DNA of 58,484 bases from positions 1 to 58,484 of the IMG/VR virus record IMGVR_UViG_3300020185_003230. One strand, 5' to 3'. The translations under genes and the position numbers were made by a program. Below the pieces are notes generated by a model, which saw only the letters and a program-made list of their open reading frames with translations, was not told the origin of the DNA and made no database searches. Positions 4,122-48,805 of this stretch are shown here, piece after piece. Position 1 is the first letter of the stretch; every line of letters starts with the position of its first letter. Origin of the DNA: a virus. Lineage: Duplodnaviria > Caudoviricetes.

Positions 4122-5429
4122 CTATATGTCTATCTTAAGTTTAAATGAAAGATTATCACTTTCTTTCTTTAATATTGGATTTGACAATGTAGCAACGCCG
4201 ATGAGGTTCTTGTATTTGTCATAAACTGCGACTCTTGAAATATACACCTGCCTCTCGAATGATGCGGAATAATCTGAGTGACTGGAACTGACTGTATTCT
4301 TTATTTTTCGATCTGACGTTTCTTCATAAATATGTGAAGAGGTATATTCCATTTGAGTTTGTCCCTTTTCAATGAAAGTAGGATTGTTGGAATAATTAAC
4401 CTCTCCGACTTCTGCGTGAGCAAACATAGTCGCAACCTGGGTCTCAGTGTGTCCCTTGAAGTCGAGAGAAAAGGAAGCGGTTACAAAGGTAGCTCCGCCG
4501 ACTGTTGTTTGATTTACATCATCGTTCGAGCCAGCGCCGTAAAATAACCAAGAAGGATTGGAAAGAGTCCCGCCAGAACCAGAGGTCATTGCAATCTGGG
4601 TTGTAGACAAGTTCCAAGATCCGGTGAGAAGCAAAAACCCTTCTTCGTACAAAGCAACTCCGGCAACAGAACCAGAGCCAGTGCTGCCAGGAGGTCCTAC
4701 TTGAATCAATTCCCCATTCTGTCTTTGATCTTGCAACTCTCCGATCAGGGATCCTGAGAAATACCACTTAAGAGAAATAGAACCAGGATTTATCTTGGTG
4801 CCATAGAAGATCGATGGTATAGAGATTAAGTTTAGTGTTTGCGTGTCTTTGTTCCAAAGTGGAGACGAGTTGCTTACCTTATAGTGTCTACTCCTAACCG
4901 CATAGAAATTTAGTTTATTCCTCAGCGCCACATAATGAGAATTGTATGATGATGTCGACGCATATGGCGTAGTTATGTACTCTCTAGTGATCGAAGAAGA
5001 TAACGGATAAGATGCTGTCAGAATTGAGCCATACTGAAACTCATTGTAATCGGAATTGGCTCCGACGGTCTTGAAACTTGACCGTGCGCTATCTTTACTA
5101 ATGTAAGGGTAAATCCTCGCGTTATCCAGTAAGAAATCTACTGCCGAGCCGGAGGCTGTATAGTCAATAACCTTAGCGTCATAACTTACCGTTGGTCCCT
5201 CTCCAACGATCCTGTCAGTATCAACAAGAGGGCGGTCGATATTGTATTCATACAGACTTAGAAAACCATTGCTGGTATTTCTTACTTGTCCAGTGCTATT
5301 ACGAGTTCCTGTCTGCTTCGGTATGTTATTATAGTATACCTGTCCATCATAAACAAAGAAGCTACTTTTTGGAGTAGCCTCCATTGTATTTAATAAGATA
5401 TCGCTTTTTTTAAATTTCTTATAGGACAT
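4122..5429 (-). CDS. Putative tail/baseplate structural protein, paralog of 5449-6492
   Basis: Ser/Thr/Gly-rich. Shares NYSxNPT and C-terminal YIxxVxxYxxxxxLxxxAxLSxPxxK with its neighbour. Confidence 0.65.
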   Translation of the reverse strand: MSYKKFKKSDILLNTMEATPKSSFFVYDGQVYYNNIPKQTGTRNSTGQVRNTSNGFLSLYEYNIDRPLVDTDRIVGEGPTVSYDAKVIDYTASGSAVDFLLDNARIYPYISKDSARSSFKTVGANSDYNEFQYGSILTASYPLSSSITREYITTPYASTSSYNSHYVALRNKLNFYAVRSRHYKVSNSSPLWNKDTQTLNLISIPSIFYGTKINPGSISLKWYFSGSLIGELQDQRQNGELIQVGPPGSTGSGSVAGVALYEEGFLLLTGSWNLSTTQIAMTSGSGGTLSNPSWLFYGAGSNDDVNQTTVGGATFVTASFSLDFKGHTETQVATMFAHAEVGEVNYSNNPTFIEKGQTQMEYTSSHIYEETSDRKIKNTVSSSHSDYSASFERQVYISRVAVYDKYKNLIGVATLSNPILKKESDNLSFKLKIDI

Positions 5430-5448
5430 GCGCGGACTCCAAAGTGCT

Positions 5449-6492
5449 CTAGTAGTCCAATCGCACCCTTAGAATTAACTCGTTCGAAGGATCCTTGCGA
5501 AGCGGCTCAGATAGTTTTGCTGTTGCCATTAGCTCATTAGCCGAGTTGTATAGACCGACGGTCGTGATATAAGCCACTGGAGAATCTGTCGCAACCTCCT
5601 TGACTCTAATCTTACTACCAGATACATATGTCGGGTTAGAGCTATAGTTGAACTTGTTGTGTGGAACGCGACAGAAATAAATCTTGGAGTTAATCTCAGT
5701 AGTGTTGTTGTACGACAAGTTCTGTACGCGGCGGCGAAGAACATCGCAAGCTCCACTGATCGAAGATGTCTGCAGTGTCTGTGCGACTGTTTGATATCCT
5801 GCAGAAGCTGAGTTGAACTGTGTTACTCCACCAAAGATTGAAGAGCTGATTACAGCAATTCCAGCTTGATAGAACAAAACACCGTGTGCCACTGAGGATC
5901 CTGACTGAAATAGGACTCCGTAGTCTCCTCCAAACGTGTTAGTGGTCTCACCTGTGTTTGATGCGCTCACATCATAGAGAGTCTTTGTGCCCGCAAATGG
6001 TGATGCCCAAGACCCAGTGCCGAGTGTGAGGCTGAATGTTCCTTTCTTTACTTGATCTTTCGTCAAGAGACGTGCAAAACTAACAATGAAAATATCCTTC
6101 ATTGTTCCTGTACCATCAAGAGTCAGATCACTTTCAAACTTTCTAACTCCGTCTGTTGTAGAGCCGGTGTAACCAAGAAGAACCTGAGAGAACTGATTGT
6201 ATAAGTTGATCTTCTTGCTGTTCTGTGTCGCAGCAGAAGATGATAGAGGGCTAGACTCATCAAACCCAACTGTTAGATCGAAGATGTGGTTAGCAGAAGA
6301 GCTTAGGTACGGGTAATCGTACACAGACTGAAACATGCCGTGGGAATAGTTTTTGATATTAGTATCATCTGGCCAGGTTCCATAAGCGCCACTTAAAATA
6401 GTGCCAGTTACAGGAATCACTTCGTGTAGCAACGTTCTAGTAGTTGTTACATCTGAGTTGATATCTATATTTTCATAATTTTGGACTGCCAT
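5449..6492 (-). CDS. Putative tail/baseplate structural protein
   Basis: C-terminal YITTVGLYNSANELMATAKLSEPLRK resembles the second half of the P2 gpH/DUF3751 collar domain. Confidence 0.65.
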   Translation of the reverse strand: MAVQNYENIDINSDVTTTRTLLHEVIPVTGTILSGAYGTWPDDTNIKNYSHGMFQSVYDYPYLSSSANHIFDLTVGFDESSPLSSSAATQNSKKINLYNQFSQVLLGYTGSTTDGVRKFESDLTLDGTGTMKDIFIVSFARLLTKDQVKKGTFSLTLGTGSWASPFAGTKTLYDVSASNTGETTNTFGGDYGVLFQSGSSVAHGVLFYQAGIAVISSSIFGGVTQFNSASAGYQTVAQTLQTSSISGACDVLRRRVQNLSYNNTTEINSKIYFCRVPHNKFNYSSNPTYVSGSKIRVKEVATDSPVAYITTVGLYNSANELMATAKLSEPLRKDPSNELILRVRLDY

Positions 6493-6509
6493 TTGTATCT
6501 CCGTTTATA

Positions 6510-7514: not shown

Positions 7515-7532
7515 TTATTTTCCTCTTCTTTC

Positions 7533-7541
7533 ATAAATAGT
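7533..7541 (-). promoter_or_regulatory. Putative phage late-promoter motif ACTATTTAT
   Basis: Intergenic, about 20 nt upstream of the ATG. The same motif recurs upstream of several other genes. Confidence 0.55.
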
Positions 7542-7578
7542 TGCTTTTTTGTTTGTTTGACGATAAGAATCTTTTTTA

Positions 7579-13122: not shown

Positions 13123-13145
13123 TTGTGTTTATTTTCGCTTGTCTA

Positions 13146-15944: not shown

Positions 15945-16909
15945 ATCTCTGGCTCCGTAACTGGTCCGTAAATATCAAAGTAATAGTTTTCCGGAGTCTG
16001 TTCGTTATAGCAATCAAAATCTAAGTCGATATAATATGATTGTTTGTTGAATATCTCTGCACCTTTGCATGCAACTTTGTGATCTGCAGATTGATCTTTT
16101 CGTATCTCAAAGTAGTATTCTACATCATCTGTTGTAAAATCTGTATCTAAATTATTGTAATTGTCCAGATACTCTTGTGTGATGAAGCCGCCGTCGATTC
16201 TTTTATTATTTTTAGCAAACCTTTTTCTCTCTAGCTTTTGTTTGCCAGAACTGTTATCAATCTCAAAGACTTCGATATCAAAATTCTCATTCAGTAAGAT
16301 TGTGTTTAACTCTTCTGCGTAAATCATTAGATCGTCCGGTTCTATCTTTATATATTTATCATCTATAAAAATATTACCTTCGCTCTGGTCTGAGGATAAC
16401 TGCGAACTGTTCTTTATCTTCTTTCTGTACGTCATCGTCATATTGACTTGCGGGACCATTATATCGTTTGTTGTGTCTTTCTGTTGAGAAGAGGATATCT
16501 CTCCGTCTAATGTTACTATTTTCCAAGCTGGGGCAGACTGGGTGTCAGCCTCAAGTCTAGCATCGCCAATCATCGAATCGTATCTGAAGGTGTCTTTTCT
16601 CGGGTTGACTGCTGTTGCATCCATATCTACAGCGAAAGCTTCTCCGGTTGTCGAGGTATATGGAATGTTTTGGTCTTCCACGTCTTCAAACAAAACTAGA
16701 CTCTCAATATAAGACGTATTGCTCTTTATTCTCTCGTGAATCTCGTTCTGTTTCTCTGTCAATCCGACGTAACTTGCATCGTAAATTACATTATCGTCGT
16801 AAAATGCATACATTTCCGGCTTGAATCTACCTTGAGACAGCAAATAATTTCCATAAGAAGTAAGTTTAAAATCAATAACTTGTTCTTTTTTATTTAGAAA
16901 TTTAGCCAT
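15935..16909 (-). CDS. Putative baseplate/collar protein, divergent third paralog of the LTxxG...DD family
   Basis: N-terminal DFKLTSYGNYLLSQGRFKPEMYAFYDDNVIY aligns by eye with the N-termini of 6510-7514 and 7579-8571. Confidence 0.55.
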   Translation of the reverse strand: MAKFLNKKEQVIDFKLTSYGNYLLSQGRFKPEMYAFYDDNVIYDASYVGLTEKQNEIHERIKSNTSYIESLVLFEDVEDQNIPYTSTTGEAFAVDMDATAVNPRKDTFRYDSMIGDARLEADTQSAPAWKIVTLDGEISSSQQKDTTNDIMVPQVNMTMTYRKKIKNSSQLSSDQSEGNIFIDDKYIKIEPDDLMIYAEELNTILLNENFDIEVFEIDNSSGKQKLERKRFAKNNKRIDGGFITQEYLDNYNNLDTDFTTDDVEYYFEIRKDQSADHKVACKGAEIFNKQSYYIDLDFDCYNEQTPENYYFDIYGPVTEPEICL

Positions 16910-19900
16910 CAGTTATTCTCTCCAGAGGGTAGCAGTGTTCTACTGACAGTACTTGGGATATTATTTTGGGAGGGCTGAGCTTTGATCTTGGGTGTGCCCC
17001 TGGCTGTTGAATACATATTTGTTTCGTTCCCGTCATCTATTTTGGCATTTTTCTTCTTCATTTTTCTATTGCCTATCTCTTCTTTTGGTTGAGAATACTT
17101 GATGTCAACGTTGATTTTTGCCATTTCAACAAAAGAAACATAATCATATGGCCAGTTGTACTTCATTTGGTATTGTGGTGCTTCTTCTAATCCAATTTTT
17201 GTATTTGGGCGAAGGTTTTCTTGAGCCTGCGTATCAACATAGTCCCAATAGTCATCTTGCCCCTTCTGCTTAACCTTAAATATCATCCATCTCAAGTTTT
17301 GGTTTTCTTCCAGCACTGTTTCATTCAATAGTTCCGCATCCATGAGTTCGTGAGCAATTGACTGATTTTCGATCTTCATCTTCTTATAGTCTCTCGGTGC
17401 TATGTTTTGCCAGATGTAGGATAGATCCGACTTATCCAGATCGTACTCAAACTCGAATATATACATTACAAACGGATCGACTGCGTTTTCAGGATTATTT
17501 ATAAAGTCAAGTTGTGGGGGGAATACATATCTATCCATTTTTTGCAATTGCTTGCTTAAGCTGGATCCTGCTGTTTCAAAACTGTCTCCGGTGGCAGTCC
17601 CGTAAGATTGTTTTTGAGCAGCCTTGTAGCGTTCCTGGGGGATAGAGATAAAGAATTTACTAGTTTGACCCAGCTCTTTCTGTGGTTCACTCTCATTATC
17701 TGGCTGCGATCTCTGTGTGATGTATGGGATAGCTACGACCGCTTCTCTAAGCTTGGCATTCTCCTTAAGTTCACCTAGGCGCTTCTTATTTTCTGTATTG
17801 AATCCAACGAGATCTGCCAAGGACTTGACGTTCCTGTATAATGTTGAATCAGCAGTACCATTGTTGTAGGAGCTTGCGTTCTCGATCACATCATAATGGT
17901 TTTGCAGCCAGTTCTTTGGTACGTCTTCGATACTAATAAAGATTCCCTTCGATGCATCCTCCGGCGGAATTCCATACTGATGCCACATACCGTGAGGTAC
18001 TGATTCTCCACCAAAGTTTGCGGGAAGCGATAAATTGATGCCGGGAGCGGAAGGAATCGTACTTCCACTAATGGGGTTCAACCCTGAATCAGAAAAGTTC
18101 ATCATCGGAGTCTCAAACTTAGGGCGGATAACCCATCGTTTGCCGACAGTTGTACCAGGGCGACTTTCTTGGACAAGTCCTTGCCTATCCTTCACTGTGA
18201 ATTCTGTTGTCTCTATTCCGAATAAGTTTAGACTGGCGTCTATTTGCATCGAACTTGAGTTAATCAGTTTTCCATCGTATGGGGCAGTCGGAAGACCTCC
18301 GGTAAGTGCATTATTCGAGTAAATTAAACTACGGTAACCGAAGCCGGTTCCTGCAGTGGATCCTGTCATACTGCCAGTAATGGGTCGACCTGCATCGAAT
18401 CTCCAAAGAACTTTTTTACACTCAGCCATTATTTTTTCTAAGTTATAATCTACTGAAGAAGTCGGTCGGAACACTAAGTCACACCATGCCTCGCCATTTG
18501 TGTAAGCCGGTGTATATGCTGGGTTAAATCCACTAATACTGTCAAAAGTGCCGGCAAAATGATATGGCTGCGGGAAACTTCCGACTGTCAGTACTGGGCT
18601 TGGTCGACCTGCGAGATCTGGACCGAACGCGCTTGGTCTACTAAACATCGTAAACGTCTCTTTAAAGCTAACAGAGCTACCAGAACCTATCGAGTATCTT
18701 GGATCCTGTGGGACTGGGAAGTATCTCGTGCTACTGTAATCTGAGCCAATGTAAGCTTTTGCTCCAAACTTAGTAAACACATTCTCTTCTGAGGAGCTGG
18801 CTATACTTGCAACATTGTTCAGAAGACCATCCACTTCATTTGTGTAGACTCTCGGACCAGTCGTCGAGCGCTCCATCTTAACTCGCATCATATAGACTTC
18901 GTTTTCTCCAAACCTAAACGTTTCAGAAATGGGCTCGGACTTAATGCTAGCAAACTCCTGATCCTTGAGGAAGAAAGAGGGGACAGCGCCGAAGAAGTTT
19001 CTTGATATACTATTGTACGATTCGTCTGATTCTCCCGGCACCCACGAACAAGTTACATACGGCATAGATGCCGATGGATGCGCTTCCATATCGTAAAAGC
19101 TCAAGCCTTGCAGATGTTTTTTTGGCTCGATTAGCGTCTCAAATGGTAACCTCTTATCAAAAAAACTAGTTGACTCCGTGCTCGTGTCTGTCAGCATAGA
19201 TACTGAATATAACTCTTCGTATAGATCAGGTCCAGACTTTGAAACCTTAAACTGTGTGCGACTAATCTTGGAAGGCTTCATTACAATCGGATAATCAACT
19301 GCCATTCCTGATTTGATCGTATTGAACATCAGTCCTGGCGAGAACATCTTTGTCATAAATGGTCTTGCTAGTCCGGAAGCTCCAGACATGTTGGGATGCA
19401 ACAATGTCCCGCTAATCACGCCAGGGGGCATCTCAGTTATTCCAGACCCAGATGGTCCACCGCCAATAACCAAAGAGGAAGTAGCCGCGCAAAGGCTGGA
19501 TATTACGTTATTATAGTGAGAATCTTTAAACTGACTAACAAGATCTAGTGTACGCTGTGCTGGATAAAACCCCTTGTATGGATTAAAGCGAATAGCTCCA
19601 GTACAAGAGACCATTATCTCTGTTGCATTTAAGAGAGATTCGTTCTTAATTTTCAAAAAGTCTTGCAAGAATTCTGAGTTAGAATACGTTATATAGAATT
19701 TGTCATTTACCCTAGAGTTTTCAGAGGTGTGTGGCAGTTCTAATCCAAGATCTTGATAAGGGTTATATCCACCATCAGAGTTTTCATATTCTGTTAGGTT
19801 TTCGCTGATTCTGTATTCTGGTATTACTGCGAATCCTTTTGCAGCTAGCTTGAGTTCGTACTTAAAATCGTCGTAATCATTAAACCAGGGCTCTGATGGA

Positions 19901-22900
19901 GCTAAGATGAATAGTTGCGTCTTATTTGTTTGATCGTAGCCAACATAACCAGCTTTGGTCGGAGCATCCCAGTAAGCCTCGCCGCCTCCGATGTCAATGC
20001 TATAATTAGCATTGCCGGATATTGCTCTTTCTACATCCTGCACCGTCATCGATGAACTTTGGAAAGCGTAGGGTAGTGATGGTCCATATGGGGCGCGGGT
20101 GGATATCGGAGTAGGTATAATGTGTTTTCTGGCGTAAAGAGCACCTGCTGCCGCCTGTCGACCGATCAATAGCGAGTCCAAACAGTCATCAACTTCGTCA
20201 GTTCCAACAGAGGAGGATGCGTACAGGTCTGCAAAATATGCGCCGGTCAAGAATCCTAGGTATGGGTTCTGTAGTTCTCCAGCGTATTGCGAGTTGAATC
20301 TTAGTGTATCCCCAAATGTGCTAGCTGTGACTGTTCCATTTGTGAGAATAGGCTCTGTACGGCTTAGGAAGTTATTTGGAGCGTCTAGCGGCCAAGAACT
20401 CTGTGCTACGTAGATGCCTGCACTGTTTACTGCAGTTACAGAGCCGGCGGGGGTTCCAAATCTAGAGGTCTCAGTATCAGTCGTATTTCTATCAGTTCTG
20501 CTATCTCTCCAGTACAGGTTATCGTATCCAGTCTTGTTTGTGGATGAGGATAAGAATTCGTTCCTAATCGAGGGGAAAAGCTGCTGAGAATATATAACCC
20601 AGTTAAGCAAGTAGCCCGTTGATCTTCCTAAGTGCATTAACTGGATATCTGGAGTAGAGAAGGAACTGAAAGACGGAGCTAATCGATTATTCATGTCGAC
20701 TGAGTTATAATATATTTTCTCGTTCTCTGCAGTTGATCTTATCGTGTATATCGCACTTGCCCCAGACACTTGAAAGTTAATCGTGTTAGGTCGCCCACGG
20801 TTGGATATAGGGGGTAAGTCATAGATGGTTATGTTACTGTTTGAGCCACTCAAGCCAGCAATTGAAATTTTATTATTTATTCTCTCATCTCTAACGATCG
20901 GGTGACTGTCTTGTCGCAACTGTTTCCAAGACGGGAAACCATACTGGTTACCTCTTTTAAACATCAGTGCGTTGAAAGCAGGAACTGCTGCAAGCTTTGA
21001 ATGTCTCTCGTCAATGATTCCTTGGGTGTTTAGGTATTGAGTCTGACTGGCTGCGCTCGGAGGGTCCGCTACGACCGGAACTGTACTTGGGTACCCTAAG
21101 ACATTAGTGCTAGATGTTATTGGCTCGTGAACGTTCAAGTTTAAGTGAGTAACAGATGGGATCAAGCCAGTCCACGGTCCAACAGCTGAGACTTGACTTG
21201 GTGTTTGACCAAACTTTCTTTCATTAGAAATAGAAGTGTGGTAGCTGCCGTACTCACTTGAACTAAGGAAACTGTAAGGTGACGTATAATAATTCGTTAG
21301 TAGTCCAATCTCTGTGCCCTTGACCAAATAATTCTCTGGAGTAAATCCTAACCAGCCATTATCTGAAACCAAAGACTGAGTAATCCAAGCATACTGCTTA
21401 GAGGATCTAGGGATCTGATGTTGTACGCTAAAGTTATCATTTGAGGATCTTGTCGCATATGTCGGAACATTGCCGACATATCCAGATATTCTTACAAGAT
21501 CTAAGTTGTTTCTGTGGACTTTATGGAAACCAGGGAGTTCATTATATGATGCGCCGGGAGAATCGACAAAGAGAGAATCGCGACCAAACCTTGCAGTGTG
21601 GCGCGCAAGATGAGAATATAATCCGTAATCTTTTCCGTGAATGTCATAAACTTGAATATTTGTTGTATCGCCGGACGTTGCAGGGGTTGAGATTGTACCA
21701 GATGGTCCCTGTGATGGCTTAAGAACTGAAAGGTTCCTGTATGCTAACCCACCGTATACTGAAAACTCTGATGCCCTGATATCTTGATATCCGCGAGTTT
21801 GTACTTCTATTCCGCCTGGAGCACTAAATCTAGATATGATTACAGACTTATTTGCGGCACCAGTTAGATAACTTGTCGAATACTCCTCAGATAGAGGGAT
21901 GTGTCCGTTTGTTGTTCTGTGAACATCTAAGATTGTGCGTACAGATGTTGAACTTGTAGCTAAACCTTGGTTTGCTGTAGGAGGTAACACCGGTTGATTA
22001 TTGACAAAGTGTCTCGGGTTAGAGTATGCGCCTACTGTTTGGACATATTCGTATGTTTCTCTATAGTTACCTAATATCGTGGAGCCGGTTGTTAACCTTA
22101 TGTTCTTAAAGTTGACCGGGCGCTTTGCAACGTGATCACGATAGTATATGGCTTTCTGTGGGCGAGTGTCTGGGTATGGTCTTGCTGCTATGTAATCATC
22201 GTTATTGGGATAATCCGGACCAACCATTCCGATAGCTCCAGATGCGATGTCAGTACAGGTACCAAGCATAATTCGCCAAGCTTCTGGTCTGGTGAACCAA
22301 GTTTCTGTACCATCTGACAATCTAATGTGTCGAGATTGGTGACCACCAACTGCGTAATCGGTGAAAGGTCCCTGCATCGGAACCTCCATATCTGGTCCAT
22401 ATACATCATTGTGCAAGTTGACAATCTGTATCTGGGCTCCTGTTAGTCTCTCGTATACTTCTTTTTGATATCCGGTATTGACTAGGTTTGAGGAACTAAT
22501 GATATTGAAAGGGAAAGCCATGGAGGACTTGAGGTTAGAATACCCCAAACCTTCTTCATATTCTTTGCCGCTCAGAACCTTAAGGTATCTCTTATCAACA
22601 ATGTTTTCTGGTCTTGGATCGTTCGACTTAAAATCCTGAACCAAATCAGACATAAAGGAGAGCAAAACATTTTGTGGGACAATCTTGCCGCTTTCTGTAT
22701 TTATCTTTCCTGCGGGATGCAGAGAGTTCAAAGTAAAGTGGATATTTTTCTTATCTGTAAAGTTTATACCACCCTTGATAATCTTAGTTTGCTTAGTATC
22801 GTAGATGTAGCTCCGAACAAGACGGCGGCGCTTGTAGGAGTTTGGATCAGCATAGGGTGTTCCAGCATCAGATAGCTGCTCAATAGTACTGCTTAAGAAT

Positions 22901-29894: not shown

Positions 29895-30263
29895 CTAAAT
29901 AGTAAATTCTAACAAATCTTTTACCCCAATATCTGGTATAGAGTATATTATCGACATTGATAGTGAGTTGGTGTCCGGGTTGCTTCCAAGAAAGTTTACT
30001 GAATCTATTCGAACAGCCGGCATATATATCGCCACTTGTCTGGTTACTCTTTGCTTTATGTCTGACTGGATATTTTCTGAGAAGTTTTGGAATAAATAAC
30101 GTTTTATACCAACTCCAAACTCGGGTTCCATAACTCTCTCGCCGGGATTTGTTAAAACCAGCATCTTTAAATTCTGCTTCACGGTGTCGCGAATACCCTT
30201 AAGCATTGCGAACCCGTCGACACTATCCTTCTCTATTGGTAACGCTACTCCGATTGATGACAC
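29895..30263 (-). CDS. Baseplate protein gp25/GPW family
   Basis: VKQNLKMLVLTNPGERVMEPEFGVGI motif. GTG start with AGGAGG SD. Confidence 0.9.
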   Translation of the reverse strand: MSSIGVALPIEKDSVDGFAMLKGIRDTVKQNLKMLVLTNPGERVMEPEFGVGIKRYLFQNFSENIQSDIKQRVTRQVAIYMPAVRIDSVNFLGSNPDTNSLSMSIIYSIPDIGVKDLLEFTI

Positions 30264-37880: not shown

Positions 37881-37901
37881 TATGTTTTCCTATTCTAAAT
37901 G

Positions 37902-37910
37902 ATAAATAGT
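37902..37910 (-). promoter_or_regulatory. Putative phage late-promoter motif ACTATTTAT
   Basis: Intergenic, 22-30 nt upstream of ATG 37880. Confidence 0.55.
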
Positions 37911-37912
37911 TC

Positions 37913-39130: not shown

Positions 39131-39185
39131 AATTTGGTGGATTCCTTATATCACTATATATCTCGACCAAAAGTTTATGTTGCTG

Positions 39186-40817: not shown

Positions 40818-41035
40818 TATTCTACCATGTTTTTTAAATCATCTGTAGAGATTTGTGAATCCTCTCCGTACCTTACAGTTGGTGGATTAGTTACGACTAG
40901 TCCCTCTTTTGAGTTCGCTAGTTCAAACCCCTTTAGGATTGGAACGATATCTAACTGATTCAGAAGAGACTCCTGTAGTGCCATCATAATAGCCCCTAGG
41001 GCTTGATTGGATAGTTTTTGTGTGTTCGTGCTCAT
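40817..41035 (-). CDS. Hypothetical protein (true start MSTNTQK)
   Basis: ATG at 41035 has a GAGG SD. The upstream in-frame extension looks like a remnant of another gene. Confidence 0.6.
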   Translation of the reverse strand: MSTNTQKLSNQALGAIMMALQESLLNQLDIVPILKGFELANSKEGLVVTNPPTVRYGEDSQISTDDLKNMVE

Positions 41036-41069
41036 CTTATGTCCTCTATTGTTTGTTGTGTTTCTGTCT

Positions 41070-41185
41070 TTTTGGTTGATTCTTAATATTATTTCATCAT
41101 AAAAGTTCCAAGCTAGAACCGCTACTTCATAATCGCCGCTAGTCGGCAGACTTTCTAGTGATTTAATTGGTATATTTAACTTTGG
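41070..41185 (-). pseudogene. Remnant C-terminus of an NDP-sugar C-methyltransferase
   Basis: PKLNIPIKSLE...VAVLAWNFYDEII matches the IPI...LAWNF.xEI end of C-methyltransferases; the N-terminal part is absent. Confidence 0.55.
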
Positions 41186-41591
41186 TATTATTTTCTCCTT
41201 TTTTAAAAAATTCCTCATTTAAGAAACATATTGTGGAATTCCAGTTTTCAAAACGATATCCCTTATCATCAATATAGATAAGGGCATGAGGCTTTCCCCA
41301 TACCACATCCTTAACGAACTTCTTAACTCCTCTTTCTTCGAGCCATTGATATATCAATTGAATACCTGTCTTAGAGTCCACCAGTGGGCGCTCAGGGTGG
41401 CATTTGCAACTATACAGTACTATGTCATACCCTTTGTGGAAAAGCGCTTCAATAGATTCTAGAGAGCCTTCAATCGGATCTCCATAAATAGTTCCGTCAT
41501 GATACCCCAAGTGATGGTTATGAATCACTCCGTCAAAATCTATTGCTATGACGTTAGCCTCATCAGATGTAAATTTGTTTTGATAACTCAA
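41163..41591 (-). CDS. Minimal HAD-superfamily phosphatase (capsule-biosynthesis type)
   Basis: IAIDFDGVI motif I, GKP and YIDDKG motifs III/IV. Confidence 0.8.
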   Translation of the reverse strand: MSYQNKFTSDEANVIAIDFDGVIHNHHLGYHDGTIYGDPIEGSLESIEALFHKGYDIVLYSCKCHPERPLVDSKTGIQLIYQWLEERGVKKFVKDVVWGKPHALIYIDDKGYRFENWNSTICFLNEEFFKKGENNTKVKYTN

Positions 41592-42304
41592 GGCGTGCCT
41601 CTCTCTTTGATCGCTCTTGTTCTATCTGACACTGCTTTGCTGGCGAAATTATAGTTAACTAAAGTTCTATCCAAAAAAGTTGTCTCAATTTTAAAGGCTT
41701 CTTCAAGTACTGATGGCATCTTTTTCTCATCCGAACACGCCTCCATTATAACCTTTCTTGTTTCAAACCTATCCAACAATCCTTTTTGGTGCATCTTAGA
41801 TACCCATGCAACACTATTGGTATTAACAGATCCGCCCATAGTAGTGATAAGATTGTATTTCTTAGCCACAGTAAGTGCCTTCTCTACTTGTTCCATTACA
41901 ATTTCTGAATCTACCACAGATTTCGACAGACCCATTGAAAGAGCCAAGTCTGTCCTACCTACAACAATACCATTGATTTTTTCATGGTTGTCACGCAGAA
42001 TTTCTTCTAAATTTTTGACTGCTGTTATTGTTTCGATATTTATATTTCTTTCATCATAATAGTTGCTCCAAGTATTAGTGGCATGGATAAACTTTTTAGC
42101 AGCAAAGTTACTTTCGATCATTGGAGCAACTATACACTTTGCTCCATAATTGATTGACTTCTCAATATCTGATTTTGCTTCACATCCTCCAATCTTAAAG
42201 GCTAGAGGAATGTTTCTTTCTTTTGAAATAGAGGATAAAATTTGCACTTCAAAATCTCTTAGCCCTTCGTCTTCAAAAGATCCTTTTAAAAATATAATAT
42301 TCAT
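41588..42304 (-). CDS. HpcH/HpaI aldolase/citrate lyase family protein
   Basis: KIGGCEA, IVAPMIES, INIETITA and GIVVGRTDL motifs. Confidence 0.8.
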   Translation of the reverse strand: MNIIFLKGSFEDEGLRDFEVQILSSISKERNIPLAFKIGGCEAKSDIEKSINYGAKCIVAPMIESNFAAKKFIHATNTWSNYYDERNINIETITAVKNLEEILRDNHEKINGIVVGRTDLALSMGLSKSVVDSEIVMEQVEKALTVAKKYNLITTMGGSVNTNSVAWVSKMHQKGLLDRFETRKVIMEACSDEKKMPSVLEEAFKIETTFLDRTLVNYNFASKAVSDRTRAIKERGTP

Positions 42305-42307
42305 TTT

Positions 42308-43039
42308 TTACTCCTTATTGGCAAATTTGCTTTTTAAAAATTCTAGCTGCCATGTGTCATCAATTTCCATACACGTTTCCTGAATATATGGATAAACGTT
42401 TTCTCCTAGCCACTGATATGGGAGTTTACCTGTTTTTGAGAATATATTTCTTCTTCTAGTTAACCAAAAAGATCCATTAAAAAAATATATATCACCGGCG
42501 CTTCCTTTGTCGTTTATTAGGTTACTTCTTTTATTTTCTAGAATTTCTTTTTCATCTAAAAAAGTTTCAACTTTGTTATCGATTATCTTCATTGCCCTAA
42601 ATGGGTTAAACATATTAAATTTAGAAACACTTTCTACGCTATCAATACTTGGGTTTTCTTTAATGATTTTGTATGCATTAGATATATCTTCTGATTTCAT
42701 TCCACAAGAATTTCCTAATAGTACCAAAATTAAGTCTACTTTATTTTTAGTTTGTTTTTCTATTTCTAAAATAGCGTGTTTCATGACTTCCTTATGGCTT
42801 GAATAATCAAGACATAAGTTTTTAGGTCGATCTATTATTTGAACCTTACTAGACATATTGTAGTTTTTAATATAATCACAATCTGTTGAAATAAAAATTT
42901 TCTTTATTAATTGATTTTTTTCACATTCTGAAACATTGTGATAAAAGAGTGGTTTTTTATCAATAATTTTAATATTCTTATTTGGAACTGACTTACTTCC
43001 GGCACGTGCAGTTTGCAGGGCAAATATTTTCACTCTCAC
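42308..43039 (-). CDS. CMP-nonulosonate/acylneuraminate cytidylyltransferase (NeuA-like)
   Basis: ARAGSKSVPNKN, ISTD, IDRP, NGS and EIDD motifs. Confidence 0.85.
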   Translation of the reverse strand: MRVKIFALQTARAGSKSVPNKNIKIIDKKPLFYHNVSECEKNQLIKKIFISTDCDYIKNYNMSSKVQIIDRPKNLCLDYSSHKEVMKHAILEIEKQTKNKVDLILVLLGNSCGMKSEDISNAYKIIKENPSIDSVESVSKFNMFNPFRAMKIIDNKVETFLDEKEILENKRSNLINDKGSAGDIYFFNGSFWLTRRRNIFSKTGKLPYQWLGENVYPYIQETCMEIDDTWQLEFLKSKFANKE

Positions 43040-43119
43040 TCCTTAAGGGATAGATCTCTTGCGAGATCAAAATTAATATTAAAATCACTAATGCTCATAG
43101 CAACTACATCTTGTTTCAT
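43036..43119 (-). CDS. 27-aa mini-ORF, possible deletion remnant
   Basis: MKQDVVAMSISDFNINFDLARDLSLKE*, with ATGA overlap upstream and GTGA overlap downstream. Confidence 0.35.
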   Translation of the reverse strand: MKQDVVAMSISDFNINFDLARDLSLKE

Positions 43120-43898
43120 AATCTAAACCTGTTAACGTTTTGATGAATATAACACTGCTCTGAGTCATAGCAACTTAAGTTTATTTCATTTTTTATGAAT
43201 AGATTATTAAAGTCATTTGATAGTATAATCGAATTTATTATCTCGTCAGAGTCTGGTTGTTCTGCGGGATTTTGAAAACTAAACCTATTACTCTCTGAGT
43301 AAAAGTGTTTAATGTAGGATCGATCATTCGGATCTTTATAATCCCATCCGATTGTTTTTATGTTTTTAAATCCCAAATGCAATAAAAAATAAAACACTGT
43401 TTCGTACATAATCCCAGGACCCCAGCATCTTGTTTGCCCAGTTTTATTAAAAGTCCAATCTTCTAAGTTTCTAGTCACAGTTAGTGGGAATCCATTATTT
43501 ACCCCCCTCACAACTTGAACATTGATGTCATAGTTGAGTCCTCTTACTGTACTATTCATTTGATTTTCGGTAAGGAAATCAGCTTGTGCAATATGTATGC
43601 AACCATTTGATTGTTTATAGGGCATTAAGTTATTGCTATTATATACTTGAAAGTTACTTAATTTTTCACATAGTTTATGCGCAGCCTTTATCGTCAAAAC
43701 ATAATTATTACCAAGCTCTTCTATCAATTTAACACGACCTTCTCCGGCTAATGCCTCCCCAATAGAAGGTCCGCAACCAAGAACATAACATGTTTCTCCT
43801 AAAAACTTGTTATGAAGAAATTGAATAGCCTCTTTATGAGAAGATATTAACTTAGAAGTTTGAAATATCTCTACACCTTCTTTTGATAAATTAATCAT
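43116..43898 (-). CDS. Maf/DUF115-like (GT29/MptE-like fold) putative ulosonic-acid transferase
   Basis: CYVLGCGPS...LGFKNIKTIGWD...HFY motif set. Confidence 0.7.
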   Translation of the reverse strand: MINLSKEGVEIFQTSKLISSHKEAIQFLHNKFLGETCYVLGCGPSIGEALAGEGRVKLIEELGNNYVLTIKAAHKLCEKLSNFQVYNSNNLMPYKQSNGCIHIAQADFLTENQMNSTVRGLNYDINVQVVRGVNNGFPLTVTRNLEDWTFNKTGQTRCWGPGIMYETVFYFLLHLGFKNIKTIGWDYKDPNDRSYIKHFYSESNRFSFQNPAEQPDSDEIINSIILSNDFNNLFIKNEINLSCYDSEQCYIHQNVNRFRL

Positions 43899-43907
43899 AT
43901 TAAATAT

Positions 43908-44891
43908 CTATTCCCTTTTTACGCCTCTCAGATCCTCTTCGAACATCATAGCGGCTAATTCTTTAAATGAAACTTTTGGCTGCCAGTTGAGAATTCTTTT
44001 TGCTTTCGATGGGTCTCCCCAGAGCTTAGGAACTTCGCATGGTCGATAAAACTTTGAATCTATTATAACATGGTCTTCTACATTAAGTTCAGCATAATCG
44101 AACACATAATTTAAAAAATCTTGTACTGAGTTAGTTTCGCCTGTCGCCACAACATAATCATCAGGCTCTGAATGGTGTAGCATCTTGTGCATCACCTCAA
44201 CATAGTCTCCAGCAAAGCCCCAGTCTCTCTGGGCTTCGAGATTTCCAAGCCTGAGTTCGTCTTGAAGACCCATTTTTATTCTTGCTGCAGCCTTTGTAAT
44301 CTTCCTCGTAACAAAGTTTTCCCCACGTCGTGGCGACTCGTGGTTAAACAGGATCCCAGAGCATGCAAAAATGTTATATGACTTTCGATATGTCCCCACC
44401 ATATGGTGTGCTGCAAGTTTGGCGCAAGCATAAGGAGATACCGGAGAAAAGTGAGTATTTTCGTTTTGTGGGCACTTGACATTATCTCCAAACATCTCAC
44501 TAGTTGAAGCTTGGTAGAATTTAATCTTTGGATCAAGCAAGCGTATTGTCTCTAGAAGATTTAAACAACCATTTAGATTAATCTCTGATGTCGACACTGG
44601 AGATTTAAAAGAAGTGCCCACGTGGGATTGTGCAGCGAGGTTGTATATTTCTTGTGGTCGATATTCGTCGACGATACGCTGCAATGACGGAAGATCTGTG
44701 ACATCTCCTTGTTCGATTATTAGCCTTTCATTATTTAAGAGATGACCGATGTTTTTCATTTTATGTTTTGAGTCGCATACAGTTCTGCGCTCAAGTCCGA
44801 TGACGGTATAATCACGGTCTAGTAGCAACTCTGCTAAATAGGAACCATCTTGTCCAGAGATACCAGTCACAAATGCTTTCTTTTCCATCAT
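43908..44891 (-). CDS. gmd: GDP-mannose 4,6-dehydratase
   Basis: TGISGQDGSYLAE, YNLAAQSHV, YQASTSEMFG, SPYACAK, GILFNHESPRRG and RDWG. Start reassigned to the ATG overlapping the upstream stop. Confidence 0.95.
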   Translation of the reverse strand: MMEKKAFVTGISGQDGSYLAELLLDRDYTVIGLERRTVCDSKHKMKNIGHLLNNERLIIEQGDVTDLPSLQRIVDEYRPQEIYNLAAQSHVGTSFKSPVSTSEINLNGCLNLLETIRLLDPKIKFYQASTSEMFGDNVKCPQNENTHFSPVSPYACAKLAAHHMVGTYRKSYNIFACSGILFNHESPRRGENFVTRKITKAAARIKMGLQDELRLGNLEAQRDWGFAGDYVEVMHKMLHHSEPDDYVVATGETNSVQDFLNYVFDYAELNVEDHVIIDSKFYRPCEVPKLWGDPSKAKRILNWQPKVSFKELAAMMFEEDLRGVKRE

Positions 44892-46294
44892 GATATTCCT
44901 ATAGCTTCTTTCATTATGTTTGTTGTATTTTCGATCGAAAGATAGCTGCTGCAATATTCGTAGCTTTCCTTACCGAGTTTCGAAAAGTTATCTGGAGAGT
45001 CTTTATATAAGTTATAGCAGCTTCTCATTTGTTCTCTAGTTGATCTAATGCTGCATTCAACATAATTTTGTTCAAATGAATATAACCCAGGAGAGTTTGG
45101 CATCCCAAAGCAGGGTTCATATGAACTTTCAATATAAAATGAATTAGGGTGACAAAAGTCTAAATGTCCGCCTTTGTCTGGAACTATTACTGGCTTTTCG
45201 AAGTGTAGAAATTCAGCAATCGGCAATCCAAACCCCTCTCCGCGTGTAGTAGTAACATATGCATCAGAGTTTTGATAAATCGAGTTAATCTGCTCTTTGC
45301 TCATTATACTAGAAAGTATAACTATTTTACACCTATAGTTAGGAATGACTTTACCATTATGTTGTATTGTCGACTTAATACCGTCAATTATCTGTGCGAA
45401 ATACTTATTCTGCGCTTCAGTCGTTTCTTCTATTGAGGCATAAGTTTTTAGAAATAAAGTAACGTCTTCTTTATAAAACTCCATCAAATATGATTTGATA
45501 AGTATGTCAAACCCTTTACGATGACTCCATTGTGCAACTGAGCACATAGCAAAATTTTCTTTTTTGATCTCTCTAAGTTTTTGCCCTAACTCTACATTGT
45601 AATCTGTTTTTGGAGATATGGTGTACGGTACAGTTACCCCTGAGACCTCGATACTTGAGTCATCTAAAGTATTCTTGTTCCATTCACAGGCGCACAAAAC
45701 ATTTTCTATGTTTGGTGTATGTTTATATCCCTTGATGCATAGATCTGGTACCTTATCTGTTTCCCATACAAAGCAAGGATATACCCTAGATGCCTGGAGG
45801 GTTATCCCGTATATATTAATCAATAGGCGATCGCCTAACTTAAAAAGTACTTTATTTTCTCTATTCTGTCGATCACTTATAGGCAGTAAATCCTCTACAG
45901 GGAAAGAACCATCTTCTGAATCCCACGGTGAGGCTAGCCAAGCGTTTATGAGAAAATAAACTAACTCATACCCCTCTTCAATAAATTTAAGACTGTCTTC
46001 GCTAAGCTCGACATTGTTGGAAGCTATGGACTCATCAATATCCATATTAGTAATATAGAGCCTACTCAATAGATTCTTAGCGGATAACTTTTGAAATATT
46101 TCTGGATCTATATCTGTTCCAATTTGATTCCCATCTACATCTTCCCTTGTGACTGATTCACATGAAAAATTAACAATCTTTAGATTTATTAATCCCTGTT
46201 CCTCAAGCTTCAGAAGAGATTTAAAATAAGAGCGGGCGGCAGATCCATATCCAGAAATATCAGTCAACTGTCCGATTAGTAGGACGTTTTTCAT
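44888..46294 (-). CDS. Glycosyltransferase, GT4/GT-B family
   Basis: SGYG N-terminus, WET, RKG and GEGFGLPIAE (Ex7E) motifs. Confidence 0.9.
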   Translation of the reverse strand: MKNVLLIGQLTDISGYGSAARSYFKSLLKLEEQGLINLKIVNFSCESVTREDVDGNQIGTDIDPEIFQKLSAKNLLSRLYITNMDIDESIASNNVELSEDSLKFIEEGYELVYFLINAWLASPWDSEDGSFPVEDLLPISDRQNRENKVLFKLGDRLLINIYGITLQASRVYPCFVWETDKVPDLCIKGYKHTPNIENVLCACEWNKNTLDDSSIEVSGVTVPYTISPKTDYNVELGQKLREIKKENFAMCSVAQWSHRKGFDILIKSYLMEFYKEDVTLFLKTYASIEETTEAQNKYFAQIIDGIKSTIQHNGKVIPNYRCKIVILSSIMSKEQINSIYQNSDAYVTTTRGEGFGLPIAEFLHFEKPVIVPDKGGHLDFCHPNSFYIESSYEPCFGMPNSPGLYSFEQNYVECSIRSTREQMRSCYNLYKDSPDNFSKLGKESYEYCSSYLSIENTTNIMKEAIGIS

Positions 46295-47520
46295 AGTATA
46301 GCTAATCCATCGCTAATGTCTTGTTGCATGGGGTTGCAAGCTTCTTCTACTTGACGCACAAAATTTGCATACATCTTTTCTTCACTGAATCGTTCTTTTA
46401 ACTCTTCTTTGTATACAAGGGCATCATCGCTTGTCTCTCTTTGATCATAACATAATCTCATCTTCTCTTTTGCAGAAGACTCTCTCGGGTATGCCCACAT
46501 AGACTGTTCTACAAGAACACCGGACCATACAACCTCTTTCTGCACGTGTTGTAGGTCGTAGGAGACATTATAAAACCGATCCTTGCCACTCTCATCAACC
46601 AAAAAATCTAACTGCCCTGACCACCCTGTAGCCACGACTGGAAGACCGCTGTATGCAGCTTCAAACATTGGAAGACCGAAGCCCTCACCGTGGGCTAGGT
46701 TGATAAGACCAAAGATTTGCGGGTGACTGTAGAGTGCATGCACTTCTTCATCTGACATGTCGCCGTGAATCAAGTGAATCTTACACTTCTTTTCTCCAAG
46801 CTTCCCTACGAACTCTGCAAGTTGTGACGCAAGATTCTGCCTATCTATCAAACAGTTCTTTGCAATGTTTCCCTTAATCACCAATCCAACTTCTTCGTTT
46901 CTGAACTCTTCAATAAACCATTTAATTGTGTTCATTAGATTCTTTCTTGGGGAAAACTGAGCTACACACAAGAAGTTATTATCATAAGGCAGCTTAATAC
47001 CCAGGTCAGGCAAATCATCGCCATAATCTTTAACTGGATAGTTTGCGTGTTCTACCGGAATAGTTAAAGTAAGTTTTACCGGCGTTCCGGCAGGATCAGT
47101 TGCTTCCCAAGAAGTATCCTTAAATACATTTGCTGAGTGACTGGATACGACAATCAGAGAATTAATCTGGTTGCTGATCTGCAACCACTCGTGGGCAACC
47201 TTTGTAGTCTCTATACCGGCTGTATATCCGATATTGACTGCTGCTAGATTTTGAAACTCGTTTGGTATAGTAGATTGTACGGAAACGTCAAAGCGACCTT
47301 TAGATTGAATATAAGCAATCGTCTCTTCAATTTTCTTATCCATCCAGGCGCGTTCTTCATCGTTCTCAATCATCCATCCATTTTGTCCCCAAGTAGTGGG
47401 TTGGATATAGATGTCATATAAGTCCTCGCGACTTCGCAAGGACCTCAAGGCAAACCTAGTCTGCTCTCCATAGCCGGAACGTGTAAGGACTGGTCCTTTT
47501 AATAATACTGACTTCTTCAT
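46291..47520 (-). CDS. Glycosyltransferase, GT4/GT-B family
   Basis: RSGYG, RKN and GEGFGLPMFEAA motifs. Start reassigned to ATG 47520 (GGAGG SD). Confidence 0.9.
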   Translation of the reverse strand: MKKSVLLKGPVLTRSGYGEQTRFALRSLRSREDLYDIYIQPTTWGQNGWMIENDEERAWMDKKIEETIAYIQSKGRFDVSVQSTIPNEFQNLAAVNIGYTAGIETTKVAHEWLQISNQINSLIVVSSHSANVFKDTSWEATDPAGTPVKLTLTIPVEHANYPVKDYGDDLPDLGIKLPYDNNFLCVAQFSPRKNLMNTIKWFIEEFRNEEVGLVIKGNIAKNCLIDRQNLASQLAEFVGKLGEKKCKIHLIHGDMSDEEVHALYSHPQIFGLINLAHGEGFGLPMFEAAYSGLPVVATGWSGQLDFLVDESGKDRFYNVSYDLQHVQKEVVWSGVLVEQSMWAYPRESSAKEKMRLCYDQRETSDDALVYKEELKERFSEEKMYANFVRQVEEACNPMQQDISDGLAIL

Positions 47521-47521
47521 T

Positions 47522-48805
47522 TTATGCCACCTCCAGCAAATGCCATCGTTTATAACCGACCCTAGTCTCCCAAGAGCCATGCTTTTCAATAACCTCATCC
47601 ATTGTCTCTACCCATCGACTCTCATACTCTTCAAAATTATAGTTGTCTTTAACGTGCTGCATACCTGCTTTCGACATTGTATTATACTTTGCCTTGGGTA
47701 GCTTGATTGCTTTTTCTAGAGTTTTCGTAAAATCAGCTTGATTAATTCTGTCTTCATAAATATAAGGCACCTGAAGCGAACCAATAACTGACTTCGAAGA
47801 TGGTTGAATTCCCCACCCAAACCAGTTCTTTCCATCAGTTACTTGCTCTTGGAGTCCACCAGTCATATTAACAATGATTGGAGTACCGCATGATAGCGAC
47901 TCTAGTGTTCCTAGACCGAAACCTTCAGCATCAGAAATATTAATTGTAAAATCAGCTGCGTTATACATAAGAGCTAAGTCTTCCGCCGACACCTTCTCTG
48001 TTGATAGCAGAACCTGCCCATCATTTATACCTAAGTGCTTAATAATTGCCGGCAAATCTTGACCGTGTGGATCACGAGCATCAGTGTGCATCAATAGCGA
48101 TGCTTTGTCGTGACCAACTTTATCTAGAAACTCCTTGAACCACCAAATAAGTGTTCCAGATTGCTTACGTCGAGCGTTCCTGTTATTCCAAAAGAAGACT
48201 TTCTTTTTCGGGTTCTGGTACTTATCGCTTGATGAAGTAATCTTTGTTCTGAGTGCTTCAATCTTCTGCTTACTCTCAGCATCAGTATACTTCTTGAAGT
48301 GCTCTTGGTGTACTGCATGCGGCAAATATCGACTAGATGTCTCTGGTGCAACCTTCTTTAAAATTTCGTGCGTTACTTTGGAAATGCATACAACTTCGTC
48401 TGTTGAGTTATAGAACCTAGCATTGAACTCTGGGGCAGGGTAGTTGTCCCAAACATGATAGTATACCAGCGGTGCGTGCGGGCGAACTTCGTTTTCCATC
48501 TCCCAGAGCCACTCGTAAAAACGAGGGTCAGTCATAAACCACACTGCATCAGGTCGCTCTTTTTGCATGACTGAACGAATAAGCTCTGGCGTTCCATAAC
48601 CGTCAATAGGATATATGATCCAGTCAGTTCCATATGGATCAACCTTCACTGGGTTGTAAGCTTGGTGCTTGACTGCTCCACCCATGCAAATAAACTTATA
48701 GCGCCCTGTTTTAAGGAGCGCCTCAATCATATACTTTGTTTGAGTGCCAACACCAGATGGCGAAAGCGGGTGGTCAGACAGGACCAAAATCTTCTTTTTA
48801 CTCAT
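47522..48805 (-). CDS. Glycosyltransferase, GT4/GT-B family
   Basis: SDHPLSPSGVG, NRNARRK and AEGFGLGTLESLSCG motifs. Confidence 0.9.
   Translation of the reverse strand: MSKKKILVLSDHPLSPSGVGTQTKYMIEALLKTGRYKFICMGGAVKHQAYNPVKVDPYGTDWIIYPIDGYGTPELIRSVMQKERPDAVWFMTDPRFYEWLWEMENEVRPHAPLVYYHVWDNYPAPEFNARFYNSTDEVVCISKVTHEILKKVAPETSSRYLPHAVHQEHFKKYTDAESKQKIEALRTKITSSSDKYQNPKKKVFFWNNRNARRKQSGTLIWWFKEFLDKVGHDKASLLMHTDARDPHGQDLPAIIKHLGINDGQVLLSTEKVSAEDLALMYNAADFTINISDAEGFGLGTLESLSCGTPIIVNMTGGLQEQVTDGKNWFGWGIQPSSKSVIGSLQVPYIYEDRINQADFTKTLEKAIKLPKAKYNTMSKAGMQHVKDNYNFEEYESRWVETMDEVIEKHGSWETRVGYKRWHLLEVA

Follow-up and report, generated by a model that had tools for sequence, protein, structure and literature searches.

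Introduction

In Gram-positive adhesins, serine residues are glycosylated by enzymes of glycosyltransferase family 4 (GT4), with GtfA/GtfB acting on serine-rich repeats and SdgA/SdgB on Ser-Asp repeats. These enzymes are cytoplasmic and often paired, and their serines lie in contexts of the S-x-S type. The autotransporter heptosyltransferases (Aah/AIDA-I, TibC/TibA) O-glycosylate Ser/Thr in the cytoplasm at short turns between the beta-strands of a beta-rich surface protein. To our knowledge, phage-encoded glycosylation of virions is known only in mycobacteriophages, without a sequon. In these siphoviruses, phage-encoded glycosyltransferases are reported to place glycans on the C-terminal ends of the capsid and tail-tube proteins (Freeman et al. 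2023, as described in PMC12619734). Here we analyzed a 58,484-bp stretch of viral DNA, the whole IMG/VR contig IMGVR_UViG_3300020185_003230 (the window), in which the tripeptide [ST][GAS]S is concentrated in four outer baseplate and fibre proteins, and which also encodes a conserved pair of GT4 glycosyltransferases (GT1 and GT2) and a variable island of sugar genes. It is plausible, if unproven, that the motif is a selected tag whose position can shift and that phage enzymes O-glycosylate it.

The locus resembles the mycobacteriophage case in that phage glycosyltransferases would modify the structural proteins of their own virion. Unlike that case, the acceptors would be dispersed tripeptides on the outer baseplate and fibres of a myovirus. 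The major capsid protein of a complete relative (G003, used for comparison of orthologues) was not enriched in the motif (2 sites vs 2.2 expected). In the adhesin systems the acceptors are long tandem low-complexity repeats, whereas the sites here are single tripeptides with hydrophobic flanks in folded proteins. The weak matches of GT1 include PDB Gtf1 (4pqg) and NCBIfam SdgA and SdgB, and reflect generic GT4 similarity; the SdgA and SdgB scores of 21.9 and 14.7 bits are far below the NCBIfam cut-off of 800. The autotransporter heptosyltransferases belong to a different enzyme family than GT1 and GT2, and no homologue of them was noticed here, although no search was directed at them. The islands for flagellin O-glycosylation by Maf (Magnetospirillum Maf, PDB 5mu5) share with the window a sialyltransferase-like fold and an adjoining CMP-ulosonate synthetase-like gene. 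Unlike Maf, the window protein is the catalytic domain alone (260 amino acid residues (aa) vs 632), the flanking N- and C-terminal domains are missing, and its PF01973 score is below the cut-off; like a sialyltransferase, it might do no more than cap a glycan. The island is a hypervariable, soluble nucleotide-sugar/transferase block at a fixed slot; it is anchored by a clade-specific GT4 pair and coupled with a candidate acceptor motif in tail proteins.

A directional tripeptide is enriched in four outer baseplate and fibre proteins

The 43 open reading frames (ORFs) of at least 100 aa in the window, all on the minus strand, were taken as genes. Expected motif counts were obtained from 2000 composition-preserving shuffles per protein. 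The proteins of the tail module that bear on the motif are as follows.

4122..5429, minus strand: 435-aa fibre-like protein, 14 sites (3.47 expected, z 5.9); C-terminal ~100 aa common to several fibre paralogues
5449..6492, minus strand: 347-aa fibre-like protein, 10 sites (2.57 expected, z 4.8); C-terminal paralogue of the 435-aa protein
16909..26547, minus strand: 3212-aa giant baseplate/fibre protein, 44 sites (15.68 expected, z 7.0); Laminin_G_3 (PF13385, E 2e-10)
26559..28082, minus strand: 507-aa protein, 14 sites (3.12 expected, z 6.4); directly after the gp6-like gene
28082..29878, minus strand: gp6-like baseplate wedge protein of the inner baseplate, motif-free (0 vs 2.15 expected); phrog_219/phrog_6
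29895..30263, minus strand: gp25-like baseplate wedge protein, motif-free; PF04965, E 4e-14
30294-36800, minus strand: 2168-aa protein, not enriched; upstream of gp25, no Pfam or PHROG match

The motif is three to five times commoner in the four outer baseplate/fibre proteins than their composition allows. In the 3212-aa protein, the first 1000 aa held 24 sites and each 400-aa bin was at or over expectation. The 2168-aa protein had 6 motifs in its first 1000 aa, and primase and PhoH contained none. The hand counts of a first-pass annotation of this DNA (14, 10, 14, about 24 in the first ~1000 aa of the 3212-aa protein, about 6-7 in that of the 2168-aa protein, and none in primase and PhoH) were reproduced exactly, and its rough estimate of about 3 expected sites in the 435-aa protein compares with 3.47 by shuffling. 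Enrichment was absent in the gp6-like, gp25-like and 2168-aa proteins and in seven further proteins of the module, some of them with similar Ser/Thr content. Among the other 39 ORFs of the window, only GT1 was nominally high (3 vs 0.59, p 0.023).

The enrichment, for which the same annotation had proposed a shuffle test, persisted under global shuffling and under shuffling inside 10-, 20- or 40-aa windows. The pooled count was 82 observed against 27-30 expected, with 0 of 1000 local shuffles reaching 82, and [ST]GS alone gave 38 against ~9. The excess therefore lies in residue order, and local Ser-rich patches were excluded as its cause. An unbiased scan of all tripeptides ranked SGS first (25 vs 4.3 expected), and the top five among tripeptides seen at least 8 times were all motif members (SGS, TGS, SSS, TSS, TAS). 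The signal was specific to orientation: the reversed SGT occurred 3 times (3.25 expected), and the direction reported earlier for the 435-aa protein was confirmed (T[GAS]S 7, S[GAS]T 0). The 38 [ST]GS sites were encoded by 30 different 9-mers with mixed codons, which places the signal at the protein level and excludes a DNA-level repeat or nucleotide motif. The Bacteroidota sequon D-(S/T)-(A/I/L/V/M/T) was not enriched in the four proteins (15 vs 16.6-16.7), nor was DS[AD], a motif reported from another clade.

BLAST among the four proteins revealed only a weak C-terminal similarity between the 435-aa and 347-aa proteins, and there were no internal repeats; a hidden shared repeat domain was thereby excluded. 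Homologues of the 347-aa protein occurred among phages only in Mel-JY01 (a Microcystis phage), immuto (a Flavobacterium phage), RM378 (a Rhodothermus phage) and LR756508 (uncultured, 484 kb). The 3212-aa gene occupies the position of the giant structural gene after gp6 in cyanophage S-RIM44. In G003 the same four orthologues were enriched (11 vs 1.9, 11 vs 2.5, 51 vs 16.0 and 15 vs 4.7), the 51 sites belonging to a 3968-aa orthologue of the 3212-aa protein, and the sheath was mildly enriched. The 2168-aa protein, which may be a tape-measure or internal protein, has a 2147-aa counterpart in G003 (44% identity).

A C-terminal domain of ~100 aa with the consensus FNYSNNPTY ... YITTVGLYD ... KLDY is common to the 435-aa and 347-aa proteins and to several fibre-like proteins of Mel-JY01, immuto, RM378 and LR756508. 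It was seen at the end of at least 14 such proteins from the five phages and matches neither a Pfam nor a PHROG family. NPTY is followed by [ST]GS in 8 of these 14 proteins.

An AlphaFold2 (AF2) model of the 435-aa protein was weak (predicted local distance difference test score, pLDDT, 59.6), with exposure readable at the level of secondary structure only. Foldseek comparison of this model with the PDB returned nothing at an E of 0.001 or better. PDB sequence and profile searches with the 3212-aa protein and alignment A1 gave no meaningful match, and an ESM Atlas search gave only unnamed viral clusters.

The third position is serine and the flanks are hydrophobic

For sequence context, sites of the window were pooled with those of Mel-JY01, immuto and RM378, giving 128 for [ST]GS and 94 for [ST][AS]S. 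Position -1 was hydrophobic at 52% of the [ST]GS and 66% of the [ST][AS]S sites, against a background of 34%, and position +1 at 45% and 59%, respectively. Charged residues were depleted at both positions. The conserved motif columns, nine in the 435-aa family and 15 in the 507-aa family, showed interchange of S and T at position 1 and of G, A and S at position 2. At position 3, these columns had Ser in 296 and 517 cells, Ala in 14 and 24 and Thr in only 13 and 11. The motif can thus be refined to hydrophobic-[S/T]-[G/A/S]-S-hydrophobic, and its last Ser is almost never Thr.

In the four motif-rich proteins, NG occurred at 0.52x (12 vs 23.1), GN at 0.44x (10 vs 22.9), DG at 0.98x and GD at 0.65x of expectation, and [ST]GS at 5.2x. 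NG, GN and [ST]GS were all near 1 in T4 and S-RIM44 proteins. A generic Gly-turn propensity was excluded, since none of NG, GN, DG and GD is enriched. Avoidance of deamidation-prone turns is a possible explanation for the shortage of NG and GN.

Site density is kept and site positions turn over among relatives

Averages were taken over the best 120 homologues each of the 435-aa and 507-aa proteins. The 435-aa family had a mean of 10.35 sites against 2.30 expected (range 5-15), with at least 5 in all 120 sequences, and the 507-aa family a mean of 15.24 against 3.45 (range 11-19), with at least 11 in all 120. The nine motif columns of the 435-aa family were kept in at least 50% of 39 sequences. 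Within the marine group, positions are largely kept: the 507-aa orthologues of the window and G003 coincide at 11 of 14 sites. Mel-JY01 and immuto, at ~25% identity to the marine phages, each have 0-1 sites in common with them and 2 with each other, yet the 507-aa orthologues of the window, G003, Mel-JY01 and immuto were all enriched (14, 15, 6 and 7 sites). Among 80 distant IMG/VR orthologues, 79 had at least twice the expected number (mean 8.94 vs 2.3, minimum 4). What is maintained is thus the density and not the position of the sites. The LR756508 orthologue of the 507-aa protein aligns end to end and has 1 site, so the fold is possible almost without the motif; three close relatives of it have 3. 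A search for relatives of LR756508 on long contigs gave only 3 short ones.

The 'tail spike' of immuto (1053 aa, L095:35287-38448) carries [ST][AG]S-aromatic repeats in its N-terminal half, with 60 motif matches against 20 expected, and repeated YSHAEG units in its C-terminal part.

A clade-specific GT4 pair accompanies the motif

Three window proteins exceeded the PF00534 gathering cut-off of 26.4 bits. They are listed with the genes and signals that flank them.

49615..49643, minus strand: sigma-70-like promoter match TTGACA-17-TATATT with TG; a single 11-of-12 match, lying within the 45-nt gap ahead of the nuclease-GT string
48813..49595, minus strand: PD-(D/E)XK nuclease (PF12705), the synteny anchor just upstream of GT1
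47522..48805, minus strand: GT1, conserved GT4; above the cut-offs of PF00534 (46.0 bits) and PF20706 (31.2 bits)
46291..47598, minus strand: GT2, second conserved GT4; PF00534 39.7 bits
44888..46294, minus strand: GT3, third GT4, in the variable island; PF00534 35.6 bits
39482..40216, minus strand: gp55-like late sigma factor, separating the sugar island from the structural genes; phrog_234, E 6.8e-5; 80% identical in G003

The sequence EGFGLxxxE was present in GT1, GT2 and GT3 at residues 294, 305 and 353, respectively, and E-x7-E is what we take to be the motif of the GT4 C-terminal domain. Among 50,697 phage records, orthologues of GT1 were found only in Mel-JY01, immuto, LR756508 and RM378, besides two weak partial matches. 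GT1 was 60-73% identical in four of the five large IMG/VR relatives; by its coordinates, the fifth contig stops before the expected position of the gene. GT1 behaves as a clade-specific core gene over hosts from different phyla. G003 has an orthologue of GT2 (53%), as do immuto (E 7e-45) and Mel-JY01 (E 5e-40), and none was found in the 484 kb of LR756508. GT3 had no close orthologue in G003. Each of the five complete IMG/VR relatives carried 2-4 GT4 genes. The order of nuclease then GT1 is kept in G003, Mel-JY01, immuto and LR756508, and the order nuclease, GT1, GT2, variable genes recurs in the first three. The Mel-JY01 orthologue of GT1 is annotated as two adjacent coding sequences of 190 and 302 aa (L103:9001-10492) and may be split or mis-called.

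The tail-module proteins of Mel-JY01, immuto and RM378 were also enriched in the motif. T4 and cyanophage S-RIM44 had no PF00534 gene, and neither showed an excess: [ST]GS occurred 8 times vs 12.7 in 22 structural proteins of T4, and 20 times vs 16 in nine proteins of S-RIM44, including giants of 3328 and 2757 aa. The first-pass annotation had asked whether phages lacking the glycosyltransferases keep the motif, and these two GT4-less phages do not. LR756508 has GT1 with its catalytic motif kept, has no GT2, and is a motif-poor lineage. The suggested co-variation of motif and glycosyltransferases therefore stands as far as LR756508 and the T4/S-RIM44 pair go, and is limited to one clade with one within-clade contrast.

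The GT4 genes precede the first structural genes by ~8 kb on the same strand, with the late sigma factor and small ORFs between. Three GT4-type transferases, Gmd and a CMP-sugar cassette, earlier placed directly upstream of the structural block, are all present, but at this distance they do not directly adjoin it. A promoter and terminator scan of the window was overall no better than chance, and the T4-type late promoter TATAAATA was uninformative (7 matches vs 4.4 expected).

The island beside the pair is variable and encodes soluble sugar enzymes

After GT3, the island of the window continues with five genes.

43908..44954, minus strand: Gmd, GDP-mannose 4,6-dehydratase; PF16363, E 1.5e-121; TIGR01472 411 bits vs cut-off 415
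43116..43898, minus strand: 260-aa DUF115/Maf-like transferase with sialyltransferase fold; PF01973 18.3 bits vs cut-off 34.6
42308..43039, minus strand: PseF-like CMP-ulosonic/nonulosonic acid cytidylyltransferase; PF02348, E 2.3e-11; TIGR03584 PseF, E 5e-24, below cut-off
41588..42304, minus strand: HpcH/HpaI-type aldolase; PF03328, E 6.9e-10
41163..41591, minus strand: HAD-type sugar phosphatase (GmhB/KdsC-like); phrog_1238; NF006506 match weak

In the family of the 260-aa protein, 39 of 44 aligned members match PF01973 at an E of 0.01 or better (best 1.6e-10). Its closest fold is that of Maf, a protein O-glycosyltransferase, and it aligns to residues 258-506 of 5mu5 only. It is a probable CMP-ulosonate transferase, found in the island of the window and not in G003 or RM378. 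The HpcH/HpaI-type aldolase is a candidate condensing enzyme for a keto-deoxy sugar acid. The gene content suggests that the 41163-43898 cassette makes, CMP-activates and transfers a keto-deoxy (sialic-acid-like) sugar through an aldolase, not NeuB or KdsA. The GC content falls to 30.8% in this cassette.

No hydrophobic segment was found in any island protein of the window or G003, which indicates that no export machinery is phage-encoded there; flippase, polymerase, ligase and priming transferase were absent among the island genes.

The phage, its relatives and the remaining features

The window is estimated at 32% of the genome. We assign it to an uncultured marine myovirus of the RM378/immuto/Mel-JY01 lineage, of which it would represent about a third. 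Its products include two baseplate wedge proteins (gp25- and gp6-like), a late sigma factor of the gp55 type, DnaG primase, PhoH, a RuvC-like resolvase and the PD-(D/E)XK nuclease. Full-length relatives of the gp6-like protein, at 27-30% identity, were found only in Mel-JY01, four immuto records and LR756508. Both GT1 and the C-terminal fibre domain have homologues in RM378, and the window also encodes gp25 and gp6. RM378 is the cultured reference phage of the 'Far-T4' group, and glycosylation is not mentioned in the accessible part of the paper describing that group (PMC4360716). The window probably belongs to the 'Far-T4' group, because it shares GT1 and the fibre C-terminal domain with the group's reference.

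Marine metagenomes contained more than 2,472 and more than 3,751 homologues of two target proteins, indicating that relatives are very abundant. IMG/VR contained 541 contigs of relatives; the complete relatives measure 194-205 kb, and two have terminal repeats. Four further features of the window are listed below.

2572-3522, minus strand: FKBP-type prolyl isomerase and fatty-acid-hydroxylase-family protein, between primase and resolvase, adjoining the tail module
52252-52863: class II aldolase, outside the main sugar island
53816-54310: second cytidylyltransferase-like gene, outside the main sugar island
57424-58467, minus strand: C-terminal fragment of DUF6267 fused to a cytidylyltransferase-like domain, at the window end

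In G003, the counterpart bearing DUF6267 is 743 aa long. G003 also codes for FKBP, Hsp20, GroEL and a weak protein-kinase-like ORF.

Discussion

The reading that we prefer is that of a tag read by phage enzymes. The invariant last Ser of the motif would be O-glycosylated in the cytoplasm by GT1 and GT2, the soluble, clade-conserved GT4 pair, after which the sugar would be lengthened or capped by the strain-variable island. In the window phage, the island would contribute GT3, a Gmd-derived 6-deoxyhexose route, and the CMP-ulosonic-acid cassette with its Maf/sialyltransferase-like transferase. Related phages would thereby show different glycans on the same tail proteins. The motif statistics, the conservation and turnover of sites, the co-inheritance with the GT pair, the enzyme families and the lack of export genes are shown by the analysis; the attachment of a sugar, the residue modified and the enzyme responsible are what we infer. 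An enzyme-read tag is favored because non-homologous proteins share the motif, density is kept without position, one orthologue is nearly motif-free, and position 3 is Ser-specific. It is further favored because the centre takes any small residue, Gly turns are not enriched, the core GT pair is co-inherited, the neighbouring genes are serotype-like, and export genes are absent. The first-pass proposal that the tripeptide is a sequon for phage-encoded glycosylation draws partial support from the shuffles, the GT4-less phages, the turnover of sites and the motif-poor lineage without GT2; hydrophobic flanks, a shaft repeat and the lack of avoidance elsewhere count against it.

These and other observations weigh against a glycosylation tag. 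The phages that carry the GT genes all come from a single clade; the association thus lacks phylogenetic independence and amounts to one or two contrasts. LR756508 retains GT1 but is motif-poor, and a 416-aa fibre homologue of RM378 is not enriched (1 vs 1.2). The GT genes follow the sigma-70-like promoter alongside the nuclease and may be early genes, which hints that they would be read by host polymerase early in infection. The 126 non-structural proteins of G003 show no avoidance of the motif ([ST]GS 19 vs 17.4). The nine conserved columns yield most of the excess in the 435-aa family, the variable regions having only 3.92 sites vs 2.50. Hydrophobic flanks suit a structural element as well as a tag, and Ala replaces the Ser of position 3 about as often as Thr does, as a steric constraint predicts. 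In the weak AF2 model (pLDDT 59.6), motif sites lie at strand ends and in tight hairpins. The 1053-aa fibre of immuto has the motif at intervals of ~7 residues, accompanied by an aromatic residue, in a pattern that resembles a folded shaft repeat.

Several of these points would be expected if the motif were purely structural or physicochemical, marking lineage-specific strand ends, hairpins and shaft repeats with small residues between hydrophobic ones, perhaps in place of Asn-Gly turns that would deamidate in long-lived particles, and unrelated to the glycosyltransferases. This is the strongest alternative, and we consider it less likely than a glycosylation tag. A structural element is favored because of the hydrophobic flanks, the hairpin and strand-end sites, the immuto repeat with its ~7-residue periodicity, the conserved columns (9 and 15 in two families), the tolerance of Ala at position 3 and the lack of avoidance in other proteins. 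In the weak AF2 model SGS225 falls in a hairpin of two residues that joins strand 219-224 to strand 227-233, with the remaining sites at strand ends. The depletion of NG and GN would agree with replacement of such turns. One instance of the motif overlaps the conserved Gly of what we take to be the C-terminal motif of Laminin_G_3. However, four families without detectable mutual homology, save the weak 435/347 pair, have the motif, and seven adjoining tail proteins of similar Ser/Thr content do not. Distant orthologues keep density and not positions, and the LR756508 orthologue retains the fold with 1 site. The exchange of G, A and S at the centre argues against a Gly-dependent turn, and a structural role explains neither the directionality nor why position 3 is Ser and not Thr. 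In T4 and S-RIM44, baseplate and fibre proteins make no use of the motif.

It is improbable that the GT pair and island act instead on host envelope glycans (lipopolysaccharide, capsule or S-layer), a soluble glycoside or phage DNA, with the motif unrelated to them. The GT4s closest in the PDB are BshA, TreT, MshA and GlgA, which act on small molecules or polymers, and GT1 passes the Pfam 'GT4-conflict' model; the string and promoter shared with the nuclease would also fit such a role. Against this, GT1 is conserved at the level of structural genes in phages of Cyanobacteria, Flavobacterium and Rhodothermus, whose envelopes differ. The absence of flippase, polymerase, ligase, priming transferase and hydrophobic segments from the islands of the window and G003 also argues against envelope glycans. 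Glycosylation of DNA is unlikely because, in the five complete relatives, a thymidylate-synthase-family hydroxymethylase over cut-off was found in 0 of 5 (the window itself being only ~32% of a genome), and Tet/JBP in 0 of 5 in a search without a positive control. For the possibility raised in the first-pass annotation that the transferases act on DNA, no path to a glycosylatable base was thus found in the relatives.

Very improbably, the motif tags another process, such as Ser phosphorylation by a kinase-like protein or the action of folding and assembly helpers (FKBP isomerase, GroEL, Hsp20): the window codes for an FKBP isomerase adjoining the tail module, G003 has GroEL, Hsp20, FKBP and a weak kinase-like ORF, and a Ser-specific position 3 suits any Ser-directed enzyme, but no such enzyme was seen to co-vary with the motif, the kinase match (PF00069, 28.9 bits) is below the Pfam cut-off, and there is no link between chaperones and the tripeptide.

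A full-text literature search returned no description of a sequon in phage tail proteins. The present analysis adds the Ser-not-Thr rule, the depletion of NG and GN, the lack of avoidance in non-structural proteins, the immuto repeat, and the GT2-less, motif-poor LR756508. The cultured phages immuto, Mel-JY01 and RM378 are named here as bearing the GT pair and motif, which makes the glycosylation of the tripeptide directly testable.

Tentatively, an abundant group of ocean myoviruses and its freshwater and thermophilic kin may combine a Ser-specific sequon, a two-enzyme GT4 coating and island-swapped glycans, including a sialic-acid-like sugar, into a phage 'serotype' on the host-recognition apparatus. 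If this is true, a defined acceptor motif would make it possible to predict glycosylation sites from sequence in thousands of uncultured phage genomes, and the puzzling hypervariable sugar islands of marine phages would have found a purpose. Strain-specific glycans would then mask or tune the receptor-binding machinery, which would affect host range as well as the stability of particles and their decay at sea.

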